A stretch of 64,000 nucleotides of DNA, from assembly GCA_041663005.1 (NCBI GenBank), contig JBAZRK010000001.1:222734-286733 (forward strand). The letters are read 5' to 3'. Shown piece after piece: positions 3,030 through 29,085 of this stretch. Position numbers and translations under genes: made by a program. How positions within the stretch are numbered: the first letter of the stretch is position 1; every line of letters starts with the position of its first letter. The notes under the pieces were generated by a model. The model saw only the letters and a program-made list of their open reading frames with translations. It was not told the origin of the DNA and ran no database searches. This stretch comes from Minisyncoccota bacterium. GTDB taxonomy: Bacteria > Patescibacteriota > Minisyncoccia > Phycocordibacterales > UBA9973.

Positions 3030-4187
3030 ATGAGCGACCTCTCAGGCAAAAAAGTTTATTCGAAGGATGGGGTAGACGTAGAAGAGGAAGCTTTGTTCAG
3101 TAGTTTTGCGGGTGCGGTATGTAAAGATAGCTACAATAATTCTCAATATGTAGAAGTGCAAGACCTATCTGGTGGGAATTTTCGCGGGCCAAGGCCGTTT
3201 GTTTTTAAAAATTTACCTGAGGGGTATTTCATCGAAGCTACTGCCGATGGTATTGGTACCAAAGGAATTCTGATTGACGCCGCTAAAACTCACCACCTAG
3301 CTGCTTATGACATTATTGCAATGACCGCAAGCGACATTACCCGCTTCGGTGGTTTACCTTTGGTATTTATAAATATTTTAGATACTGTATCTGTGGGCAC
3401 CAAGGGCGGGGAAGTAAGCGAAGCGTACAAAAGTGCGATTGCCGGCTTAGGTGAAGTTGCGAAACTTAGCAAAATTGTGGCACTTAAGGGTGAAACGGCT
3501 CAGATGGGTGACGCTCTAGGCTCTGAGATATCGACTTCTCCCACAAAGTTGAACTGGTCAGGAGTTATGATTGGCGCATACCACAAGAATAAAATGATTA
3601 CTGGTGAGAGCCTGGCACCGGGCCAAGTCATCATCGCCCTCAAGGAAAATGGTTTCCGAAGCAACGGTATTAGTTCTGTGCGCAAAGCTTTTAGAGAAAA
3701 ATTTGGAGAGAAATGGTGGGAAAATCCTGATGCATCTGCCGATATTAAAAGTGCCGCAGCTCAATCCGTACTTTATGATATGTATGTAAACACTTTACAC
3801 GGATGGTTTAGTAAAGATTTTACGCCAGAGATTAAAATTCATTCCGTTGTACATCTCTCCGGCGGAGCTATGAAAGAGAAGCTCGCCAAAGATATTCTTT
3901 TCCCCAAAAAACTCTCGGCCGAACTTTTTGATTTGTGGGAGCCTCCTCTGATAATGAAGAAATGCGCCGAATGGCATAAAATTAGCGATGAAGAATTCTA
4001 CGAAGTCTGGAATGGTGGTCAAGGAATGCTTATAGTGGTAAACGAGGAAGATGCCGAGCAGGCAGTTAACCGAGCGCGAGATTTCGGTGTAGAGGCAAGA
4101 ATTGCCGGTAAAATTGTAAGGGAAGACAGCCCCCAAGTTTCTATTCTATCCAAATTAAATCCTGGAAAAATTATTATTTATAAATAA
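3030..4187 (+). CDS. purM: AIR synthetase-related protein (PurM family)
   Basis: ATADGIGTKG and DIIAMTASDI motifs of the PurM/PurL superfamily. Sits in the pur operon. Confidence 0.7.
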   Translation: MSDLSGKKVYSKDGVDVEEEALFSSFAGAVCKDSYNNSQYVEVQDLSGGNFRGPRPFVFKNLPEGYFIEATADGIGTKGILIDAAKTHHLAAYDIIAMTASDITRFGGLPLVFINILDTVSVGTKGGEVSEAYKSAIAGLGEVAKLSKIVALKGETAQMGDALGSEISTSPTKLNWSGVMIGAYHKNKMITGESLAPGQVIIALKENGFRSNGISSVRKAFREKFGEKWWENPDASADIKSAAAQSVLYDMYVNTLHGWFSKDFTPEIKIHSVVHLSGGAMKEKLAKDILFPKKLSAELFDLWEPPLIMKKCAEWHKISDEEFYEVWNGGQGMLIVVNEEDAEQAVNRARDFGVEARIAGKIVREDSPQVSILSKLNPGKIIIYK

Positions 4188-5203: not shown

Positions 5204-6571
5204 ATGGTAAACAACGCGATTAGCCCCCTAGACGGTAGATATTTTTCGAAAACTCGCACCCTAGCGCCTTATTTCTCCGAGGAGGCGTTAATGAAATACC
5301 GATTGGCAATGGAAGCAGAGTACCTAATCGCCCTGTCACTATCCAGGAAAACTGCATTAAGGAAATTTACTCCAGCAGAAATAAAAATTATAAGGACCCT
5401 CGTAGAAAAATTTAACGACGACTCCTATAATAAAATAAAAGAAATAGAAAAAACTACCAACCACGACGTGAAGGCGGTGGAGTATTTTATCAAGGAGCGC
5501 CTATCGAAAACCTCACTCAAAGACTCAACTGAATGGGTCCATTTTGCGCTAACCTCTGAAGATACCAACAACATTGCTTACGGAATGATACTAAGCGACG
5601 CCACAGAGAACATCCTCCTTCCAAAGCTTCTAAAAATTGTGGCTGAACTTAAAACACTAGCCAAGCACCACAAAGATCTCCCAATGCTCGCTAGAACCCA
5701 CGGCCAGCCAGCCACTCCAACGACTTTCGGCAAAGAAATGAACGTCTTCGCGGAAAGACTCGACCGAGGATTAAAGCACCTACTGGGGCAAAAGATTCAA
5801 GTTAAATTAAATGGCGCCTCCGGCAACTACAATGCCCATATGGCAGCCTATCCTAAGGTTGACTGGCTCAAGTGGAGTGAAACATTCGTGGCCGGCCTAA
5901 ATAAGAAACGAAAATTTGCTCTGGAGCTTAACCCACTCACGACCCAAATTGAACCTCACGATTCATACGTGGAACTTTTCGACCGCATTAAACGCTTCAA
6001 CAATATCCTTGTCGACTTAAACCAAGATATGTGGAGATATATTTCCGACGAATGGGTGGTCCAGAAACCTAAGCCCGGAGAAGTGGGCTCATCCACTATG
6101 CCTCATAAAATTAACCCGATATTCTTCGAGAACAGCGAGGGTAACCTAGGCTTGGGCAACGCTCTCTTTGAATTCTTCGGCAGGAAGTTGCCAATTTCTC
6201 GTCTACAGCGAGACCTCTCGGACTCCACAGTAGAACGCAATATGGGTGTAGCCTTCGCGCACTCACTGGTTGCCTACGAGTACTTACTTGAGGGACTTGC
6301 AAGAATTAGCGTTAACGAACACAACGTCGTTGCCGCACTCACTAAACACCCGGAAGTTATAGGCGAAGCTATTCAGACAATCTTACGCCGAGAAGGTATA
6401 GAGGCTCCGTATGAGAAATTGAAAGAACTTACCAGGGGCAAAGAGAACACACTGGAAGCTATTCACGCTTTTGTAGGAACTCTAAAAGTAAGTGACAAAG
6501 TGAAAAAAGAACTGCTTAAACTCACGCCGGAAAACTACACCGGCCTTGCATCACACCTCGCTTCAAAGTAA
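5204..6571 (+). CDS. purB: Adenylosuccinate lyase
   Basis: N-terminal SPLDGRY. 455 aa of the fumarate-lyase family. Sits in pur context. Confidence 0.9.
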   Translation: MVNNAISPLDGRYFSKTRTLAPYFSEEALMKYRLAMEAEYLIALSLSRKTALRKFTPAEIKIIRTLVEKFNDDSYNKIKEIEKTTNHDVKAVEYFIKERLSKTSLKDSTEWVHFALTSEDTNNIAYGMILSDATENILLPKLLKIVAELKTLAKHHKDLPMLARTHGQPATPTTFGKEMNVFAERLDRGLKHLLGQKIQVKLNGASGNYNAHMAAYPKVDWLKWSETFVAGLNKKRKFALELNPLTTQIEPHDSYVELFDRIKRFNNILVDLNQDMWRYISDEWVVQKPKPGEVGSSTMPHKINPIFFENSEGNLGLGNALFEFFGRKLPISRLQRDLSDSTVERNMGVAFAHSLVAYEYLLEGLARISVNEHNVVAALTKHPEVIGEAIQTILRREGIEAPYEKLKELTRGKENTLEAIHAFVGTLKVSDKVKKELLKLTPENYTGLASHLASK

Positions 6572-10033: not shown

Positions 10034-10477
10034 ATGAAAGTTATATTTCTTCAAGATGTGCCCAGGGTAGGGAAGCGGCACGATATAAAGGAGGTTAACG
10101 ATGGTTACGCTATGAATTTTCTCTTACCTAGGAAACTCGCAGCGATAGCCACACCTCAAGCCATCTCTGAACTTGAACAACGAAAACAAAGTATCGAAAT
10201 AGAGAAAAAGGTGCAAGAAGACCTTTTGCTTAAAAATTTGGAACAGATTAAAAGCAAAGTGGTGCATATGAAAGGCAAGGCCGATGACAAAGGTCACCTT
10301 TTTTCAGGTATCCACGCCAAAGAAATAGTTGAAGCACTGCATAGCGAACACCACGCCGAGGTTTCTGTTGAATCGATCGCTTTAACAAAACCAATCAAGG
10401 AGGTTGGGGAGTTCGAAGTTCCGGTAAAAGTTGGTAGCAAAAAATCCTCGTTCAAGCTTATAATCGAAAGAATTTAA
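10034..10477 (+). CDS. rplI: 50S ribosomal protein L9
   Basis: MKVIFLQDV...GYAMNFLLP N-terminus. Confidence 0.9.
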   Translation: MKVIFLQDVPRVGKRHDIKEVNDGYAMNFLLPRKLAAIATPQAISELEQRKQSIEIEKKVQEDLLLKNLEQIKSKVVHMKGKADDKGHLFSGIHAKEIVEALHSEHHAEVSVESIALTKPIKEVGEFEVPVKVGSKKSSFKLIIERI

Positions 10478-22141: not shown

Positions 22142-24697
22142 ATGAGAAATAAGTCCGTACGCCTGTCTAAAAAAGTCATTCCGACTAAATATAAACTTGA
22201 ACTCAAGCCCGACTTGGAGAATTTTACCTTCTCCGGCCGAGAAAGCATTTCTGTTAATGTTTTACAAAAAACTAAAACAATAACCCTGCACAGTAAAGAG
22301 ATAGACATCGAAACCGCAGACTTAACTATCAAGAATGAGAAAATATTTGGGAAAATTTCTTACGATAAGAAATCCGATACGGCAACCTTCACATTTCCTC
22401 AGCTTATCCCTCCGGGGAAATACGAGCTAACTTTAGTTTTTCAGGGAATTCTTAACGATAAAATGCGGGGATTTTACAGAAGTAAATATAATGTGAGGGG
22501 AAAGGCTTTTCATATGGCTACCACCCAATTCGAAGCCACCGACGCCCGCCGTGCTTTTCCCTGCTTTGATGAGCCAGCCCAGAAAGCTGTCTTCCACGTG
22601 TCTCTGGTTGTGCCCCGCGGCAAAACCGCTATTTCGAACACCCTGCCGATATCAGTCAAAGAGCACGAGGCTGGCTTTGATACTATTGAGTTTGCGCCCA
22701 CACCGAAAATGTCTACTTATCTTTTGGCCTTCATTGTGGGAGATTTGGAATATGTAGAAAAGAAATCTCGCGGCCGTGCCGTACGTGTCTGGACAACTCA
22801 CGGGAAATCTCATCAAGCACATTTTGCTCTCGACTGCGCGGTGAAAACTTTGGAATTTTATGAAAAATATTTTGATATAAAGTTTCCTCTCCCGACACTC
22901 GATATGATAGCCATCCCAGATTTTTCTTCCGGAGCAATGGAGAACTGGGGCGCGATAACTTATCGCGAAAGCGCGCTATTGGTGGACCCTCATCACTCCA
23001 GCGTCGGGAACAAGCAATGGGTCGCGCTTGTCGTCGCCCATGAGCTGGCGCACCAATGGTTCGGTAACCTTGTAACAATGGAATGGTGGACACACTTGTG
23101 GCTCAACGAAGGCTTCGCTTCCTATATCGAATACTTGGCCGTAGATAAACTCTTCCCGAAGTGGGACATCTGGACCCAATTTATGACTGATGATATGGGC
23201 CGCTCCCTTCGCCTCGATGCTCTCGCCAGCACTCACCCGATAGAAGTCGAAGTCCACCACCCGGACGAAATCGGCGAAATCTTTGACGAAGTATCTTATT
23301 CCAAGGGCGCTTCGCTCATTCGTATGCTTGCAGGCTACCTGGGTGAGCGAAATTTCCGCGACGGCCTGCGTCACTATTTGAAAAAGCACAGCTATAAAAA
23401 CACGTCTACAATTCATCTCTGGGAAGCTTTTGAAAAGGTTTCGGGTAAACCCGTAGCCAAAATGATGAAAAATTGGACCGGCAAGCCGGGATACCCAGTA
23501 GTGCGAGTAAGCGCGCTTGGGCTCTCGCAAGAGCGCTTTTTTGCAAGTCCTATATCTGCTAAAAAGGCAAAAGATAAAACAATCTGGCAAATCTCCGTCC
23601 AAAATATGAAAACAAACTTTTTAAGGGGTTTGGCGAGCGACGGCGAGCCAACTTCAGGAATTTTTAAGCTTAAAAAATTTCGTACCGACAAAAAGTTTAG
23701 TTTTCATAATTATATAAAACTGAATTTTGGCGAAACTGGATTTTACAGAACCGCGTACTCGAAAGAATTACTAGAGAAGCTGTATGAGCCAATACAGAAT
23801 AAAAATTTTAGTTCCAGAGACAGACTAGGAATAATTCGAGATCTTTTTGCTTTAGCTGAGGCAGGTACAATACCTACTACTGACGCATTAGAATTTCTAG
23901 ATGCCTATAAAAATGAGGACAATTACACTGTCTGGCTCGAGGTTGCGAACGGCCTTGCTCGCCTGCGCCAACTCTTGGCGAAAACACCAGTTAGCGAAAA
24001 GGTAACCGTCTTCACTATGCGACTTTTTTCTTCACTGGCAGAAAAGATGGGCTGGGCAAAGAAAAAAGACGAGCATCATACGGGTGCCCTGCTCCGCTCG
24101 CTCGCTATTGATCAAGCGGGACAAGCTGGAGACAAAGAAATAATTAGAGAAGCTCGCAAGAAGTTCAATTCTCCTAACATCCCACCTGATATTCGCGGCG
24201 CAGTTTATTCCGTTGTGGCTACCCACGGAGGAGTAAAAGAATTCAATCAATTTATTGCTAAATATAAAAAGGAAACTCTCCACGAAGAAAAGAATCGCTT
24301 GGGCTCGGCGCTAGGCGATTTTAAAAATGAAAATCTTTTGCTGCAAGCTTGCGAATTTGCTATGTCCTCTAACGTTCGTCCGCAGGACACTGTAGGCATT
24401 CTCTCTTCAGTCGGAGCGAACTCCGTGGGCCGAGATATTTGGTGGAATTTTATGAAAAAGAATTGGAAAACCCTGGTCTCTCGCTATGGCGAAGGCGGCC
24501 TCACGCTCGGCCGCGCAATGAAAGCTATAGGAGGCAGTGCCGAGCCTAAGCATTTAGCTGATATAAGAAAATTTTTCAAGACCCACCCTGCCCCCGGCGC
24601 TAAGCGCTCCATCGAGCAAGTGCTCGAACGCCTCGAAGGCAACATCGCCTGGCTGAAAAGAGATGGAGAAATTATTGCGGAGTTTTTGAATCGATAA
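22142..24697 (+). CDS. pepN: M1-family aminopeptidase N
   Basis: GAMENWG and HELAHQWFGN...LWLNEG. Confidence 0.9.
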   Translation: MRNKSVRLSKKVIPTKYKLELKPDLENFTFSGRESISVNVLQKTKTITLHSKEIDIETADLTIKNEKIFGKISYDKKSDTATFTFPQLIPPGKYELTLVFQGILNDKMRGFYRSKYNVRGKAFHMATTQFEATDARRAFPCFDEPAQKAVFHVSLVVPRGKTAISNTLPISVKEHEAGFDTIEFAPTPKMSTYLLAFIVGDLEYVEKKSRGRAVRVWTTHGKSHQAHFALDCAVKTLEFYEKYFDIKFPLPTLDMIAIPDFSSGAMENWGAITYRESALLVDPHHSSVGNKQWVALVVAHELAHQWFGNLVTMEWWTHLWLNEGFASYIEYLAVDKLFPKWDIWTQFMTDDMGRSLRLDALASTHPIEVEVHHPDEIGEIFDEVSYSKGASLIRMLAGYLGERNFRDGLRHYLKKHSYKNTSTIHLWEAFEKVSGKPVAKMMKNWTGKPGYPVVRVSALGLSQERFFASPISAKKAKDKTIWQISVQNMKTNFLRGLASDGEPTSGIFKLKKFRTDKKFSFHNYIKLNFGETGFYRTAYSKELLEKLYEPIQNKNFSSRDRLGIIRDLFALAEAGTIPTTDALEFLDAYKNEDNYTVWLEVANGLARLRQLLAKTPVSEKVTVFTMRLFSSLAEKMGWAKKKDEHHTGALLRSLAIDQAGQAGDKEIIREARKKFNSPNIPPDIRGAVYSVVATHGGVKEFNQFIAKYKKETLHEEKNRLGSALGDFKNENLLLQACEFAMSSNVRPQDTVGILSSVGANSVGRDIWWNFMKKNWKTLVSRYGEGGLTLGRAMKAIGGSAEPKHLADIRKFFKTHPAPGAKRSIEQVLERLEGNIAWLKRDGEIIAEFLNR

Positions 24698-25100
24698 AAA
24701 TTTGATTGTCTAGAAATGCTTTGATGCGGCGCTTGTGAGAATCGAAAATGTTGTCCGGTAGTTTATCTAAATCTAACCACTCCCAGCCATAACATTTATC
24801 CGGCTCCATTAAGCTCGGCTCCCCTTCTATGTTTTGAGCTAAAAAGCTGACATGAACATAGTGTTTATCACCACTAGAATCGTGCCCCATATTTAAGAAT
24901 GTAAAAGAGTCGCAGGTTAATCCAGTTTCTTCGAGAAGCTCCCTTGCGACGGCTTGTATCATTCCTTCATTGTGCTCCAGATGTCCACCCGGAAGTCCCC
25001 ATTCGCCCTCCCCTGCGCTGTTTTTCCTTTTCCCTAGAAGTATTTTATTATCCTTTATAACGAACGCGTTAACCCCCACGAGGAAGGAATCTCTGTTCAT
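24672..25100 (-). CDS. Nudix hydrolase
   Basis: Nudix box GGHLEHNEGMIQAVARELLEETG. Confidence 0.8.
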   Translation of the reverse strand: MNRDSFLVGVNAFVIKDNKILLGKRKNSAGEGEWGLPGGHLEHNEGMIQAVARELLEETGLTCDSFTFLNMGHDSSGDKHYVHVSFLAQNIEGEPSLMEPDKCYGWEWLDLDKLPDNIFDSHKRRIKAFLDNQIFIDSKTPQ

Positions 25101-25115
25101 AGAATGATTATATCA

Positions 25116-25622
25116 CTATAGCGAATTTATAAAATTACGAATCTCTTTGAAAGACGAGAGAGTTACCGTCTTTTCTTTGTGAGGCGAGATAAATTCGTGA
25201 ATTGTCGGGTACCCTTTACGATAGCCTATGCTATACCTTTTATAGAAAACATGACGCATAAGTTCGAAAAGTCCACCGACGGTTTCGTTGTCTCGATGGA
25301 AATGCCTTTTGATTAAATAGAGCCACTGAGCAAAAATATTTTTGTGGGTAAGGAATATCACCACATCCGCCGCATCGAGGCCCGGCTCGACCATCCACTC
25401 GGTCGTGCCCTCCACGATCCACTTGTCGCTCTCGTAAACTTTCGAAATCTTCGACAGGCTCTCTTCCCGGCTACGCATTTTCGTAAACTTTATTTCGTAA
25501 TAAAAGTCGTCGGTAGAAAAATACGGTATGCCTAGTTTTTTCTCAAGCTTGCCTGCCAACGTGGTTTTACCTCGTCCCGCATCCCCAGTAATAATGATTT
25601 TTCTTATATTTTGCTTGTCCAC
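25116..25622 (-). CDS. P-loop nucleoside/nucleotide kinase-like protein
   Basis: ITGDAGRGKTTLAGKL Walker A. 168 aa. Confidence 0.55.
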   Translation of the reverse strand: MDKQNIRKIIITGDAGRGKTTLAGKLEKKLGIPYFSTDDFYYEIKFTKMRSREESLSKISKVYESDKWIVEGTTEWMVEPGLDAADVVIFLTHKNIFAQWLYLIKRHFHRDNETVGGLFELMRHVFYKRYSIGYRKGYPTIHEFISPHKEKTVTLSSFKEIRNFINSL

Positions 25623-25691
25623 ACTTAAATTATATCATATCGAGCCCGGGGTAATGAGTTATCCACAGCCGAGCTTGGTACTTTACTTGAC

Positions 25692-25705
25692 TAAAGTACT
25701 TTAGT
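25692..25705. promoter_or_regulatory. Perfect 14-bp palindrome CTAAAGTACTTTAG with flanking half-site repeats. Candidate operator of the adjacent TrpR-like gene.
   Basis: Read directly. Lies about 17 nt upstream of the start codon. Flanked by tactttacttgac and tttgctaaagtgg partial copies. Confidence 0.4.
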
Positions 25706-25721
25706 TTGCTAAAGTGGAGAT

Positions 25722-26138
25722 ATGAGTAAAGGTGTGAATAAAAATGCAGAGGTTAAGACAGTTAGAATGGTGACCGAAATTGGCACAGATACTGACTGGA
25801 ATACAAAAACCGGCAAACAGCTCGTGGAGGCACTTTTAGCGCTTGAGACTCCCGACGAAGCCAAGCGTTTTCTTCGTGACCTTCTAACTCCCGCGGAAAT
25901 AAAAGAATTCGCTAGTCGTCTTGAAGCCGCTCGTTTGCTCTCTCGCGATGTGCAGTACAATGCCATAAGTGAATCTACGGGTCTCTCTTCTGCTACCATC
26001 GCCCGCATTGCCAAGTGGCTCAATGGCTCTCTCGGCGGCTATCGCTTAGTAATTTCACGCCTTCCTTCGACATCGCTCAGGACAAGTCACCACAACAACT
26101 CTTCCCCACAACGGAAAGGGTTGCGTTTGAGCTCGTAA
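25722..26138 (+). CDS. TrpR-like YerC/YecD-family DNA-binding protein. The C-terminal ~35 aa may be read-through tail.
   Basis: LLTPAEIKEFASRLEAARLL...YNAISESTGLSSATIARI matches the YerC/YecD TrpR-related pattern. Confidence 0.6.
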   Translation: MSKGVNKNAEVKTVRMVTEIGTDTDWNTKTGKQLVEALLALETPDEAKRFLRDLLTPAEIKEFASRLEAARLLSRDVQYNAISESTGLSSATIARIAKWLNGSLGGYRLVISRLPSTSLRTSHHNNSSPQRKGLRLSS

Positions 26139-26156
26139 TTTATTCTATTTCGAACT

Positions 26157-26186
26157 TAACCCCTTCCGTCGTGGAAGGGGTTTTGC
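26157..26186 (+). terminator. GC-rich hairpin ccccttcc-gtcgt-ggaagggg followed by tttt. It marks the boundary of the GC-rich islet.
   Basis: 8-bp perfect stem and a T-run, read directly. Confidence 0.4.
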
Positions 26187-26233
26187 GTTTACCCTAAAAC
26201 GCAGACGATTTTGTTCTTTGACAAGGAGGTCAG

Positions 26234-26515
26234 ATGTCAAACCCCGCCGAAGTGTACATTCTCTCAGAGTTAGAACGCGAGGAGCTGCTCGCCCCCATTC
26301 AAAATCACAATCATTGCTGGGGGGCACTCGCAGAGCAGATTCTCGGGGACGCAGTCAGGGAACGCACCCAGAATTGGTGTGCGAAATCTCGCGCACATGA
26401 GCATGAGTGGGTTTACCCGCGCATGGAGGACAGCATCGACAGGCAGCGAAACGAGGTGCGAACCTACTGCCGTTTTTGTTTTACCAATAAAGGAGGACCA
26501 TATGTGGGAAAGTAA
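26234..26515 (+). CDS. Small cysteine/histidine-containing hypothetical protein (93 aa) in the GC-rich islet
   Basis: Strong SD aaggagg 6 nt upstream. Local GC is visibly above the window background. Confidence 0.45.
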   Translation: MSNPAEVYILSELEREELLAPIQNHNHCWGALAEQILGDAVRERTQNWCAKSRAHEHEWVYPRMEDSIDRQRNEVRTYCRFCFTNKGGPYVGK

Positions 26516-26702
26516 TGAGTTAGTGTGGAAAAATAAAAATGGAGAGACTGTAATCGTTTGCCCTAAGTGTGGGAACTGGAGATTTATCGCGACCATTACT
26601 TGCCAGTCGAAACAGCAATGCCACAAAGGTTACCCATATGAAGAAAAAAGCTGGTGCGGAAGATGCGACTATGTCTGGACCAGTTCGAGGAAGTACAAAT
26701 AA
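26502..26702 (+). CDS. Small zinc-ribbon protein (66 aa, CPKCG ... CGRC). It overlaps the 3' end of the previous ORF.
   Basis: SD aaaggagg precedes the ATG. Two CxxC pairs are present. Confidence 0.45.
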   Translation: MWESNELVWKNKNGETVIVCPKCGNWRFIATITCQSKQQCHKGYPYEEKSWCGRCDYVWTSSRKYK

Positions 26703-26770
26703 AAACATCGCGCCTGACGAGCGCAAAAGAGGACGTAGCAAGTTTGGAAGACAACTACTACGCCCTTTTT

Positions 26771-27115
26771 TTATTTACTTGCGTCTACTTTGGCGGCGAG
26801 GATGAAGTCGTTTTCGGAGAGACCGCCGATGGCATGCGTAGAAAGGATTAATTTCACTTTATTATATTTTATTTTTATGTCTGGATGATGTCCTTCAGCT
26901 TCCGCAATCTCGGCAACGTGGTTGACGAAGTTTATTGCGCCGATAAAATCCTGGAATTTATATTTCTTTATTATTTCTTTCCCGTCCTCTGACAGTTCCC
27001 AGCCGGAGACCATATGCATATACTTCTCCGCCTCCTCCTTATCGAGTGGTAGGGCTCCGCCTTCGCACGGCACACATTTTTTATTTAGCAAATTTTTTTC
27101 TTTCTCGTTAGACAT
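26771..27115 (-). CDS. Pterin-4a-carbinolamine dehydratase
   Basis: EGHHPDIKIKYNKVKLILSTH...ENDF matches the PCD/DCoH signature. Confidence 0.85.
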   Translation of the reverse strand: MSNEKEKNLLNKKCVPCEGGALPLDKEEAEKYMHMVSGWELSEDGKEIIKKYKFQDFIGAINFVNHVAEIAEAEGHHPDIKIKYNKVKLILSTHAIGGLSENDFILAAKVDASK

Positions 27116-28040
27116 TTAGATTTTCTCTTAACTTAGCAATTTTATATATACTAAATACTAAGACGATAGCCGCGACCCATTGTGACAAAGAAAGTACGGT
27201 GTGATTTATCGCAAAATCCAAAAGGATTGCCACGAAAGGAAAAGTGAGCTCAAGAATAGTAGAAATATGCACGGGAGTTTTCGCCAGACCTTTGTAATAA
27301 ATCAGGAGTGCTACCATTCCGGTCGAAATAGCAATAAGTGCCAGGAATCCAAACTGCGATACATTCGGCACTGAAAATGATTCCCCTGTTCGCCCAAACC
27401 AGACCAACAACGGCAAGGAAATTATCAAGGTGATTAAAAATCGATAAAAAGTACCAACCTTGAAGTCCACTCGCCCCAAAAGCATTTTAGAAAACGTAGT
27501 GGATGAACCCCAGGCAAATGCTGCGCCGAGAGCGTAGAACGCTGCGATAGCTGTCCCCTCGCCTGTCTCCAGATTCACGACGCCGTTCGGGAAAGTGACA
27601 AAATAGGCGGCTAGAAGTGCAAGCACCGCCCATTTGATATATCTTTTATCCAATTTTTCTTTCAAAAAGATGCGAGCAGTAGTGATGGCAAATATCGGCT
27701 GAAGTTTTTGCAGTAAAAATACGACAGATATAGTTATAAAGTGAACCTTGCCAAGCGCGGTCGTAAACCAGAGTGTACCGAAAAGTCCACTCAAAATTGC
27801 AATCAAGATAATGAGCCACCATTCACGCGAAGTTAACTTGGTCTGCCACACATATTTCAACACAAATGGCGATAAGATCAGTAGACCTATTAGGTGTTCG
27901 AAGAAAATTATCGTAATTGGCGGGAGCGTGTAGAGATGCTGACGAATGAGCCCGTCGAAGGCCCACAAGAGCGCGGCGATGATTATAAAAATGGGACCCT
28001 TATAATTTTTCATTTTGTTATTATACTTGATATAGTCCAA
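27108..28040 (-). CDS. EamA/DMT-family transporter
   Basis: Ten predicted TM segments with duplicated EamA-like halves. Confidence 0.75.
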   Translation of the reverse strand: MDYIKYNNKMKNYKGPIFIIIAALLWAFDGLIRQHLYTLPPITIIFFEHLIGLLILSPFVLKYVWQTKLTSREWWLIILIAILSGLFGTLWFTTALGKVHFITISVVFLLQKLQPIFAITTARIFLKEKLDKRYIKWAVLALLAAYFVTFPNGVVNLETGEGTAIAAFYALGAAFAWGSSTTFSKMLLGRVDFKVGTFYRFLITLIISLPLLVWFGRTGESFSVPNVSQFGFLALIAISTGMVALLIYYKGLAKTPVHISTILELTFPFVAILLDFAINHTVLSLSQWVAAIVLVFSIYKIAKLRENLNV

Positions 28041-28071
28041 ACATGAAAACTCCGGATTAGCTCAGGGGGTT

Positions 28072-29085
28072 TTAAAAGGGCTTTTCATTTCGTAGTGTGT
28101 TTTTTAAGGATTGAACCAAACCCCGATTTTTCTGTAAGTAAACTCCTGCTTTTTCTAAAAGATTAAATCTGCTCGCACATGCTTCTAAAATTTGTTTGTA
28201 TTTCTCGTCTCGTGATCCATCCGAAGCAAAGTAAAACCTTGCTGCTTCGGCTATATCTTCAACTTCACCATGATCATTGAGATCCTTATACCTTCTTTCG
28301 CTAGCATACCCAGACATTGTTGTACCATCTTCCTCCATGGCCTTTCTCCACTTCGGACCCGGATGTATGCTGCCAGTGATAGATTTGGCTATATTATGCC
28401 CCAGTTCATGATAAAAGGTTTCCAAGAGTTCTTGCTTGCTTACAATATCCGAATCTACATACAAAATGAGTATTTCTTTTTTAGCAAATAATGATCCTTC
28501 GCTTCTCGCTACCCCCGCCCTATCTTGCGCCTCTCTTTCGATGCGAATTTCACTCACGCAATCCAAAAATTGCGAAGGTAATGCTGATATTAGGTCATCG
28601 ATTAATTCCGAAGTTTCGGGGGATCGATCTTTAAACGCAAGGTCGTAAATTTTTATTTTTTTCTTATAGCCAACACTGTCGTTAACTTGATAAAAATATT
28701 CGTGCGCTTTTACGTTTCTCGGCTCAAGATGAATTTCGCCTGTCAACTCCCCTGGTTCGCCATTTTTTTCTAGCTTTACCACTCGTAATTTATTTCTATC
28801 AACACTCGTAACGACATACATTTCGTTGCCGTGAATATTCATTAGCACTGTCCCCTTCTGGGCATTTTTCACTTGCGTCGGTTGCCAGCCTTCCCGAATG
28901 AGAATATCGGAAGCAGATAATTTCAAAATTGTTTCTTTTCCTGTCTCGAGTCTTACGACAGCGACTCTTTCTATGTTCCGCCCATCTTGACCAATAGCTG
29001 GCAAAGTTGCCATGCTATCCTCGACGGTTTTTCTTTGCACCCTTATTCCTGCTCTTTGTTCAAGAGGTGGTCGATCAAAGTTCAT
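28072..29085 (-). CDS. Hypothetical HExxH protein (putative zincin-like metallopeptidase)
   Basis: FYHELGHNI ... EDIAEAARFYF motifs. No secure family. Confidence 0.55.
   Translation of the reverse strand: MNFDRPPLEQRAGIRVQRKTVEDSMATLPAIGQDGRNIERVAVVRLETGKETILKLSASDILIREGWQPTQVKNAQKGTVLMNIHGNEMYVVTSVDRNKLRVVKLEKNGEPGELTGEIHLEPRNVKAHEYFYQVNDSVGYKKKIKIYDLAFKDRSPETSELIDDLISALPSQFLDCVSEIRIEREAQDRAGVARSEGSLFAKKEILILYVDSDIVSKQELLETFYHELGHNIAKSITGSIHPGPKWRKAMEEDGTTMSGYASERRYKDLNDHGEVEDIAEAARFYFASDGSRDEKYKQILEACASRFNLLEKAGVYLQKNRGLVQSLKNTLRNEKPF

Follow-up and report, generated by a model that had tools for sequence, protein, structure and literature searches.

The segment at positions 26140-26760 of a 64-kb stretch of DNA from a Minisyncoccota bacterium (contig JBAZRK010000001.1; the whole stretch is referred to as the window) follows a TrpR-family repressor gene, hisR (yerC), faces a convergent PCD gene, and contains two small overlapping open reading frames (ORFs), ORF1 and ORF2. 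Our analysis suggests, with a probability of about 0.6, that this segment is the promoter-distal part of a hisR (yerC)-ORF1-ORF2 operon that would be autoregulated, controlled by HisR, gated by an attenuator, and switched on when histidine is scarce. The regulatory architecture is supported by sequence, homology, synteny, and covariation; the reading of the switch by ribosomes at His codons, histidine as its signal, zinc binding, and the functions of the encoded proteins are inferred. An initial annotation of the same DNA had described a GC-rich islet, likely acquired horizontally and reminiscent of small toxin-antitoxin or phage-derived modules. Its inventory holds up, as the two Cys-containing ORFs of 93 and 66 aa (the latter with CPKC...CGRC), their 14-nt overlap, and the AAGGAGG ahead of each are confirmed by coordinates (Table 1). 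In the following, WIN denotes the window's own locus, L with three digits a related locus or contig, and P with four digits a homologous protein.

Predicted HisR operator and RNA switch

The upstream gene, previously described as TrpR-like, is by its sequence a YerC/HisR histidine repressor. Its product scores 66.1 bits against the TIGR02531 (yecD_yerC) model, for which the curated cutoff is 42.2, and 65.7 bits against PF01371 (E = 4e-18; cutoff 27), while the PDB entries 3FRW, 3G1C, and 3KOR match residues 27-116 of HisR only (E = 9e-12 for 3G1C, HisR of E. eligens). According to Ashniev et al. 2022 (PMC9413887), the product of yerC in B. subtilis is HisR, which belongs to the TrpR family, represses histidine genes, and requires L-histidine as corepressor for DNA binding, and the HisR box in Firmicutes, Actinobacteria, and Synergistetes is cacTTTAnnnnnnTAAAgtg, i.e., the 20-bp palindrome cacTTTA-N6-TAAAgtg. 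Two perfect boxes of this type abut directly in front of hisR and overlap a promoter-like site that was recognized by consensus match only. They are the sole zero-mismatch matches in the 64 kb, where none is expected from 100 shuffles. Perfect boxes also occur 5' of hisR in all nine relatives that retain upstream DNA (L004, L005, L014, L046, L083, L084, L087, L091, and L094), with two boxes each in L004, L005, L014, L087, and L094 and four in the L084 locus. The pair at 25680-25715 is a predicted operator, to which HisR would bind together with L-histidine.

Perfect or near-perfect HisR boxes were also observed elsewhere in the relatives, namely in L084 (5742-5759 and 2250-2267, one of them before an EamA-flavokinase fusion gene), in L006 (2380-2397, after PCD), and in L046, where the box lies right past the hisR stop and before the gene downstream of a tail-less hisR. 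EamA, PCD, and flavokinase genes adjoin the hisR operon in the window, which hints at a broader HisR regulon in the candidate phyla radiation (CPR).

The "GC-clamp hairpin" noted earlier after the repressor gene is present at 26158-26182 (an 11-bp stem followed by a T-run) and can be identified from its sequence as a terminator that makes up half of an RNA switch overlapping the hisR ORF. Conserved in 12 loci, it folds alone at -17.5 kcal/mol. The CPR HisR proteins associated with this hairpin carry a C-terminal extension, ...(H)HH-N-x-S-x2-(I/L)-GKGLS.., which is absent from the solved homologs. The corresponding tail DNA, GGGAAAGG(A/G)TTGTCTT, is nearly invariant, synonymous sites included, and is followed on its 3' side by TTCGAA-N-TAACCCCTTCC, the 5' arm of the terminator.

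Both terminator arms can pair with the final ~45 nt of the hisR ORF, and the RNAalifold consensus is such a long-range structure rather than the terminator, with the tail codons paired to the terminator 5' arm and loop and the N-S-S codons to its 3' arm. The hisR tail GGAAAGGGTTGCGTTTGA (26113-26130) and the terminator 3' arm GGAAGGGGTTTTGCGTTTAC (26171-26190) are near-repeats, either of which can pair with AACCCCTTCC, and this forms the basis of the alternative folds. When the nascent transcript, with the 3' arm not yet made, was folded singly, the same antiterminator was obtained in 9 of 10 loci (-16 to -33 kcal/mol). For the full element, the minimum free energy (MFE) structure is the antiterminator in the window, L005, L084, L091, and L096, and the terminator is kept in L004, L014, L083, L087, and L094; the window sequence 26085-26190 has an MFE of -36.3 kcal/mol (z = -3.9). 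In a register-anchored alignment of 10 loci, 94% of the cells pair, and compensatory double changes are found in 9 of 21 pairs. None of the measures was reached in shuffled controls (0/500), and slid controls gave 30-61%. The covarying pairs link the terminator loop to codons for non-conserved amino acids (Q-R, K-L, H-I, S-V, K-I, P-V, and Q-L), which argues for selection on the RNA.

Terminator and antiterminator are thus predicted from the sequence to be mutually exclusive, as in a ribosome-mediated attenuator, and the geometry fits ribosome-read attenuation. Most tails contain 1-3 consecutive His codons in a fixed register, 10-18 nt 5' of the inner helix and just outside the footprint of a stalled ribosome; His is about five-fold enriched in the HisR tails, and the relatives carry 1-4 His codons in the same register. 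Since the hisR stop codon lies 0-9 nt past the 5' strand of the helix, a terminating ribosome would unzip it. An Rfam cmscan of 24500-28500 (E <= 1) returned no riboswitch or leader, His_leader included, and gave only sub-threshold miRNA noise on the hairpin. As evidence for a single operon, no promoter-like site was detected from the hairpin to ORF1, and the family gene of L083 begins within ~10 nt of the hairpin T-run.

On this basis, the following course of events can be proposed. Transcription would start at the promoter covered by the two tandem HisR boxes and proceed through hisR to the terminator/antiterminator switch. A ribosome reaching the hisR stop would melt the tail pairing, allowing the terminator to form, whereas with a ribosome stalled at the upstream His codons, or with no ribosome, the antiterminator would stay intact and RNA polymerase would continue into ORF1 and ORF2. 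At low histidine, release from HisR repression and read-through would act with the same sign, so that both layers would favor expression of the small ORFs under histidine scarcity. ORF1 and ORF2 would then be translated by de novo or coupled initiation relying on their very strong Shine-Dalgarno (SD) sequences.

The earlier remark that most genes here have weak or no SD sequences is borne out by the long ORFs, 58 of 60 of which lack an SD core ahead of the longest start; with up to 60 alternative starts allowed, two reach AGGAGG. AAGGAGG occurs 12 times on both strands of the 64 kb, and only the copies belonging to ORF1 and ORF2 precede a credible start. Two others, at 10088 and 11859, were considered as marks of further strong-SD genes and rejected, as the former falls within the L9 gene and no credible ORF begins at either one. 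In the clade of the window, AAGGAGG (L004 and L005) or AAGGAG (L094 and L098) precedes the first gene behind the switch, and the 5' untranslated region (UTR) and SD of ORF1 are conserved ahead of the first post-hairpin gene in L004, L005, and L098. If ORF1 and ORF2 are internal genes translated from read-through transcripts, their very strong SDs in an otherwise SD-free genome would be explained; such an SD may be typical of genes whose translation begins on read-through RNA, downstream of a stable structure, when the genome is otherwise poor in SD sequences.

Table 1. Features of the proposed hisR operon and its 3' boundary, numbered from the first letter of the window
Feature	Position	Strand	Remarks
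HisR box 1, ACTTTA-N6-TAAAGT	25680..25697	.	Perfect match to the published consensus cacTTTAnnnnnnTAAAgtg (PMC9413887)
Promoter-like TTGACT-17-TAAAGT, TG-extended	25687..25715	+	Consensus match only; overlapped by HisR boxes
HisR box 2, abutting box 1 directly	25698..25715	.	Perfect ACTTTA-N6-TAAAGT
hisR / yerC-like TrpR-family repressor	25722..26138	+	138 aa; ~22-aa C-terminal extension ...SHHNNSSPQRKGLRLSS
His codons CAC CAC, two	26088..26093	+	Just 5' of inner antiterminator helix; read from sequence
Antiterminator 5' strand (predicted)	26091..26131	+	Within hisR coding tail; from fold, RNAalifold consensus, and covariation
Antiterminator 3' strand (predicted)	26149..26187	+	Includes both terminator arms and loop
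Intrinsic terminator hairpin AACCCCTTCCG-TCG-TGGAAGGGGTT + TTTT	26158..26186	+	11-bp stem 26158-26182, then T-run
Second hairpin TTTGCGTTT-ACCCTA-AAACGCAGA, then CGATTTTGTT	26182..26205	+	TTTTGCGTT motif common to several relatives
SD AAGGAGG of ORF1	26223..26229	+	4 nt before ATG
ORF1	26234..26515	+	93 aa, 4 Cys + 4 His; helical N-terminal part with DH-x-HCWG; C-terminal CHCC module (C49, H57, C79, C82)
SD AAGGAGG of ORF2	26490..26496	+	5 nt before ATG; inside non-conserved ORF1 tail
ORF2	26502..26702	+	66 aa, 6 Cys, CPKC (20-23)...CGRC (52-55); 14-nt overlap with ORF1, +1 frame
Small GC hairpin + T-run	26708..26726	-	Distal to main PCD terminator
Bidirectional terminator (A-run, hairpin, T-run)	26725..26772	.	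Closes hisR operon (+) and PCD gene (-)

ORF1 and the CHCC family next to hisR

By sequence, ORF1 is a member of an undescribed family of small CHCC zinc-knuckle proteins that is a near-obligate neighbor of hisR. The frame of ORF1 has the best codon score of the six. A word-indexed search of 5.8 billion proteins returned self-matches only, tblastn revealed an ORF of 37% identity between hisR and PCD in L005, and an exhaustive HMMER search assembled a family of 30 proteins at E <= 1e-3; a metagenome pattern scan contributed one additional locus, and a scan of viral contigs none. The homolog search that the initial annotation had called for thus yielded a family for ORF1 and no homolog for ORF2. 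The family core of ~40 aa, C-x-KS-x4-H-EWVYPR-x-EDSID-x2-R-x5-8-YC-x2-CF, corresponds to residues 49-83 of ORF1, and C49, H57, C79, and C82 (numbered as in ORF1) show little or no variation among the 30 sequences, suggesting a CHCC zinc site. A subset that includes ORF1 also shares the N-terminal part L..EE..LLEP-x-DH-x-HCWG. No model of Pfam, NCBIfam, PHROGs, or PADLOC matches the family, and the EWVYPR-EDSID motif was present in no library searched. An AlphaFold 2 (AF2) model of ORF1 from an 11-sequence alignment (predicted local distance difference test, pLDDT, 75.9) consists of two helices and a small C-terminal knuckle with a short beta-hairpin, for which no structural neighbor was found; the model from the single sequence (pLDDT 46) was uninformative.

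In all 10 assessable independent loci (WIN, L005, L083, L084, L087, L091, L093, L094, L096, and L098), hisR lies upstream of the family gene on the same strand, either directly adjacent (WIN, L083, L084, L091, L093, L094, L096, and L098) or with 1-2 intervening ORFs (L005 and L087). An eleventh contig, L097, starts inside the characteristic hisR hairpin and keeps the hairpin only, and L092 and L095 are too short for hisR linkage to be judged. The other neighbors vary by locus and include Asp/Asn-tRNA synthetase-family genes, EamA-flavokinase, hutH, an integrase, and PCD. This linkage to hisR amid otherwise varying neighbors argues for a functional connection. L094 represents the simplest form of the window locus, with hisR, an 87-aa ORF1 homolog, and convergent PCD, and without ORF2. 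ORF1 evolves fast, showing 34-61% identity where HisR shows 70-73%. As a guess, ORF1 might serve the response to histidine limitation as a small regulator or adaptor, possibly with HisR itself as its target.

GC content reaches 48.1% in 26140-26760 compared with 43.4% in the window (92nd percentile), and the description of the segment as GC-rich stands for ORF1, with 53.2% GC (99th percentile) and a GC content at third codon positions (GC3) of 0.60 that exceeds those of all 42 long genes. It does not stand for ORF2, which at 42.3% equals the background, nor for the proposed limits: the 3' half of hisR has 52% GC, and hisR through ORF1 together 49.7% (99th percentile). Since the rise begins inside hisR, a discrete islet is not delimited by hisR and PCD. 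The GC excess of ORF1 is common to the homologs of its clade (50-53% vs a background of 41-44%).

Several further observations concern the family and the proteins encoded behind the hisR switch. In L093 (376-2242), a tail-less hisR fragment and several GC hairpins are followed by a 70-aa CHCC family gene and then by hutH (histidine ammonia-lyase; TIGR01225, 583 bits), which ties the family directly to histidine metabolism. Tandem copies and decay are seen in L097, where a truncated fragment at 121-168 (MDIQSKCSKSPNGEH*) precedes the full gene at 207-494, and in L087, where a divergent 67-aa CHCC copy at 3352-3555 (KCPKSPFGRHSWV...) lies 5' of a 47-aa member. Many proteins behind the switch, some without detectable mutual similarity, end in a His right before the stop, as do L004 6401-6964(-), L087 3661-4218, L095 80-352 and 368-631, L083 5001-5192, L098 205-468, and P0013, P0014, P0016, P0017, and P0031; ORF1 and ORF2 lack a terminal His. 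Recurrent tails are ...HYCGSSGGIH, ...HRCGGSSSEHSHIGRH, ...ENSHIGRH, ...DGHGLRH, ..SGIH, and ..NGIH, and the terminal His could represent either a modular tag at the C-terminus or a site of stalling on the final His codon. Records of the exact ORF1 protein come from Logan assemblies only, and the JGI/ENA gene calls of the 336-kb contig include ORF2 and not ORF1; standard gene-calling pipelines may miss or mis-start it.

ORF2 and the variable slot

Between hisR and PCD, the relatives carry a slot of changing content. Homology of the window to L004 ends at 26189 and resumes at 26706, which leaves 26190-26705 as window-specific DNA with respect to that locus, and L005 has the 5' UTR in common with the window up to the SD at 26229. 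The slot contains ORF1 and ORF2 in the window, an ORF1 homolog alone in L094, a VanX-like dipeptidase and an ORF1 homolog in L005, an unrelated 187-aa gene in L004, and two other small Cys ORFs in L014. The DNA beyond PCD in L003 carries hisF/hisA/hisH and no hisR, and therefore does not represent a version of the slot. The suggestion that the islet might be absent at the yerC-PCD junction of related genomes thus applies in part: the slot varies and ORF2 is missing, and ORF1 homologs are present in L005 and L094. The closest relatives of the neighboring PCD gene (78-81% identity) are metagenome-assembled genomes labelled Paceibacterota, Minisyncoccia, or Patescibacteria.

ORF2 is a probable young or orphan partner gene, lineage-specific and translated by coupling to ORF1, as judged from its sequence context. 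That it is not a gene at all, 26516-26702 being a 3' UTR and the SD-ATG in the ORF1 tail fortuitous, we consider unlikely. In favor of this alternative, ORF2 returned self-matches only among 5.8 billion proteins, gave nothing by phage tblastn, and is absent from all related loci, being missing from L094, L005, and L098, the last of which has a different second gene. Its codon usage is atypical, at the 1.7th percentile for windows of real genes and close to the median for spurious ORFs. In addition, two Logan contigs match the window at 100% identity, and the three copies of ORF2 in all are identical, so that they carry no evolutionary or selection signal. Against a chance ORF stand the AAGGAGG 5 nt from the ATG in a genome nearly without such sites, the best codon score among the six frames for frame 0, an end 8 nt short of the conserved terminator region, and the six Cys arranged as CPKC...CGRC. 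At least two CxxC motifs occur in only 3 of 199 chance ORFs of 50-110 aa, one of them being the frame of ORF2 itself, and its Cys fraction of 9% falls in the top 0.5% of chance ORFs. Moreover, zinc-ribbon modules repeatedly accompany the CHCC module elsewhere, as N-terminal fusions (L092 and L097), as C-terminal fusions (P0015 and P0023), or, in L014, as a separate 66-aa ORF with a match to the extension of P0015 (E = 4e-11); ORF2 itself is weakly similar to the L092 ribbon (E = 0.001 in a single comparison). The best Pfam match of ORF2, which contains two CxxC knuckles, is Zn_Ribbon_TF at 16.1 bits, below the cutoff of 29. A descent of ORF2 from a degenerate CHCC copy, considered by eye from HKGYPYEEKS vs HEWVYPRMEDS, was rejected (hhalign probability 0.3%; hmmsearch -1.5 bits).

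On the distal side, the bidirectional terminator folds on both strands (-20.9 and -27.3 kcal/mol; z = -3.5 and -5.2). Its sequence, GGACGTAGCAAGTTTGGAAGACAACTACTACGCCC plus T-run, differs by ~1 base among the window, L004 (~6330-6375), and L005 (~6330-6380), where the flanking coding DNA is ~75% identical; such conservation exceeds the usual need of a terminator. Farther downstream, a 337-aa ORF at 28072-29085 (-) of the window, conserved in the Logan contigs, shows weak matches to SprT-like and zinc-metallopeptidase families in its HExxH region.

Alternatives and biological implications

Several points weigh against the proposed histidine-responsive operon. The window contains no further HisR box with at most 1 mismatch and no other target in his biosynthesis or transport. 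The covariation set consists of 10 related sequences put in register by anchored motifs, with the variable middle replaced by an artificial AAAA linker, and the covarying structure was derived from the very sequences used to test it. The His codons number two in the window and one in L004 and L084, so that the His-specificity of the switch is weak in some members. Because the loci were mostly found through the ORF1 family, the statistic in the reverse direction, from hisR to a family member, is biased, and among the three hisR loci with a tail that were reached independently through PCD, a family member is present in L005 only. CPR promoters may escape the sigma-70 consensus scan that detected none between the hairpin and ORF1. 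ORF1 is not His-poor (4/93 residues), which is odd for a product of His starvation, and the lack of homologs and the atypical codon usage of ORF2 described above count in the same direction.

One alternative, which we regard as rather unlikely, accepts the switch as real and denies that it is read through His codons; it would instead couple termination to hisR translation generally (under any starvation or stress on translation) or serve as the binding site of a protein such as HisR or of a ligand. The presence of only 1-2 His codons in the window, L004, and L084 is compatible with this, ribosome occupancy of the tail would suffice to flip the structure, and a His-rich tail could be a metal- or ligand-binding peptide. 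The five-fold enrichment of His in the tails and the fixed register of the run just outside the footprint distance in most of them speak for His codons, as does the absence of an Rfam riboswitch or leader match; furthermore, the tail is carried by the histidine repressor itself, with which the logic would match.

It is less probable still that a plain terminator ends hisR and that the slot is a recombination hot spot whose small genes use non-canonical promoters of their own, the hisR-ORF1 linkage being positional rather than regulatory. The slot is clearly variable, the hairpin with its T-run is a strong terminator that the full-length MFE keeps in five loci, as listed above, and CPR promoters are poorly known. 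However, the pairing between the hisR tail and the terminator arms covaries, the synonymous-site invariance of the GGGAAAGGATTGTCTT tail codons would be left unexplained, no space for a promoter remains in L083, where the family gene begins within ~10 nt of the hairpin T-run, and the family gene lies behind one and the same gene in 10/10 assessable loci whose other neighbors vary.

The original proposal of a horizontally acquired islet with a toxin-antitoxin-like or phage-derived two-gene module, to which the two small overlapping ORFs with atypically strong SDs, the GC3 of ORF1, the differing slot content of close relatives, and the restriction of ORF2 to one lineage had lent some appeal, is very improbable and for ORF1 largely refuted already, since homologs of ORF1 are found in this slot in L005, L094, and L098 and behind hisR in every assessable locus (which makes ORF1 a resident of the locus rather than imported cargo), the GC excess is shared by homologs and reaches into hisR, searches of Pfam, NCBIfam, PHROGs, PADLOC, phage genomes (tblastn), and viral contigs gave no toxin, antitoxin, phage, or defense similarity, and no tRNA (ARAGORN), integrase or other mobility gene, direct repeats flanking 26190-26705, or promoter-like site of its own was found at the window locus. 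Only ORF2 is lineage-specific.

Compared with known systems, the proposed hisR-ORF1-ORF2 operon combines familiar and distinct features. As in the HisR (YerC) regulons described by Ashniev et al. 2022 (PMC9413887), a YerC/YecD-type TrpR-family repressor has the same 20-bp box over its own promoter, consistent with autoregulation; the phyla named in the excerpted text of that study do not include Patescibacteria. In contrast to those regulons, HisR here has a ~22-aa His-containing C-terminal extension and a terminator/antiterminator switch overlapping the repressor ORF, and the genes behind hisR encode small zinc-knuckle proteins and variable cargo rather than histidine biosynthesis or transport. 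With the his/trp/leu attenuators the switch would share an exclusive antiterminator/terminator pair, codons of the sensed amino acid just 5' of it, and a stop placed so that a terminating ribosome covers the antiterminator 5' strand. It differs from them in that the role of the "leader peptide" would fall to the C-terminal tail of a complete regulator of 138 aa and not to a separate short ORF, in having two helices instead of the four-segment 1:2/2:3/3:4 layout, and in its 1-4 His codons, non-biosynthetic downstream genes, and lack of an Rfam leader match. ORF2, with two CxxC pairs, and ORF1, with C..H..C-x2-C, resemble small zinc-ribbon or knuckle proteins (Pfam Zn_Ribbon_TF and zf-ChsH2), all Pfam scores being below the cutoffs. 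The resemblance to type II toxin-antitoxin systems, two small overlapping and presumably co-translated genes adjoining a DNA-binding repressor gene, goes no further: there is no toxin or antitoxin similarity and no separate promoter-like site, and ORF1 is conserved with hisR whereas ORF2 is not conserved.

To our knowledge, almost nothing is known of gene regulation in Patescibacteria (CPR), and HisR was mentioned in none of the listed papers containing Patescibacteria or CPR terms. A broader proposal, which we put forward tentatively and at somewhat less than even odds, is that Patescibacteria use a two-layer histidine sensor, in which HisR acts on its own operator and a His-codon attenuator lies within the C-terminal extension of the repressor ORF, together gating a phylum-restricted family of CHCC zinc-knuckle mini-proteins and a cargo slot with rapid turnover. 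In bacteria that rely on hosts for amino acids, these mini-proteins would carry out or modulate the histidine-limitation response. The locus presents a defined control circuit, built on a repressor of known type and a perfect operator, and a covariation-supported RNA switch for which the end of the regulator's coding sequence may also act as leader peptide, a layout of which we found no description. For the ORF1 family, nameless and either missed or called hypothetical by standard annotation, the strict linkage to hisR provides a first functional hook, and the slot behind the conditional terminator may be a nursery of small genes that evolve fast or are orphans, ORF2 being one example.

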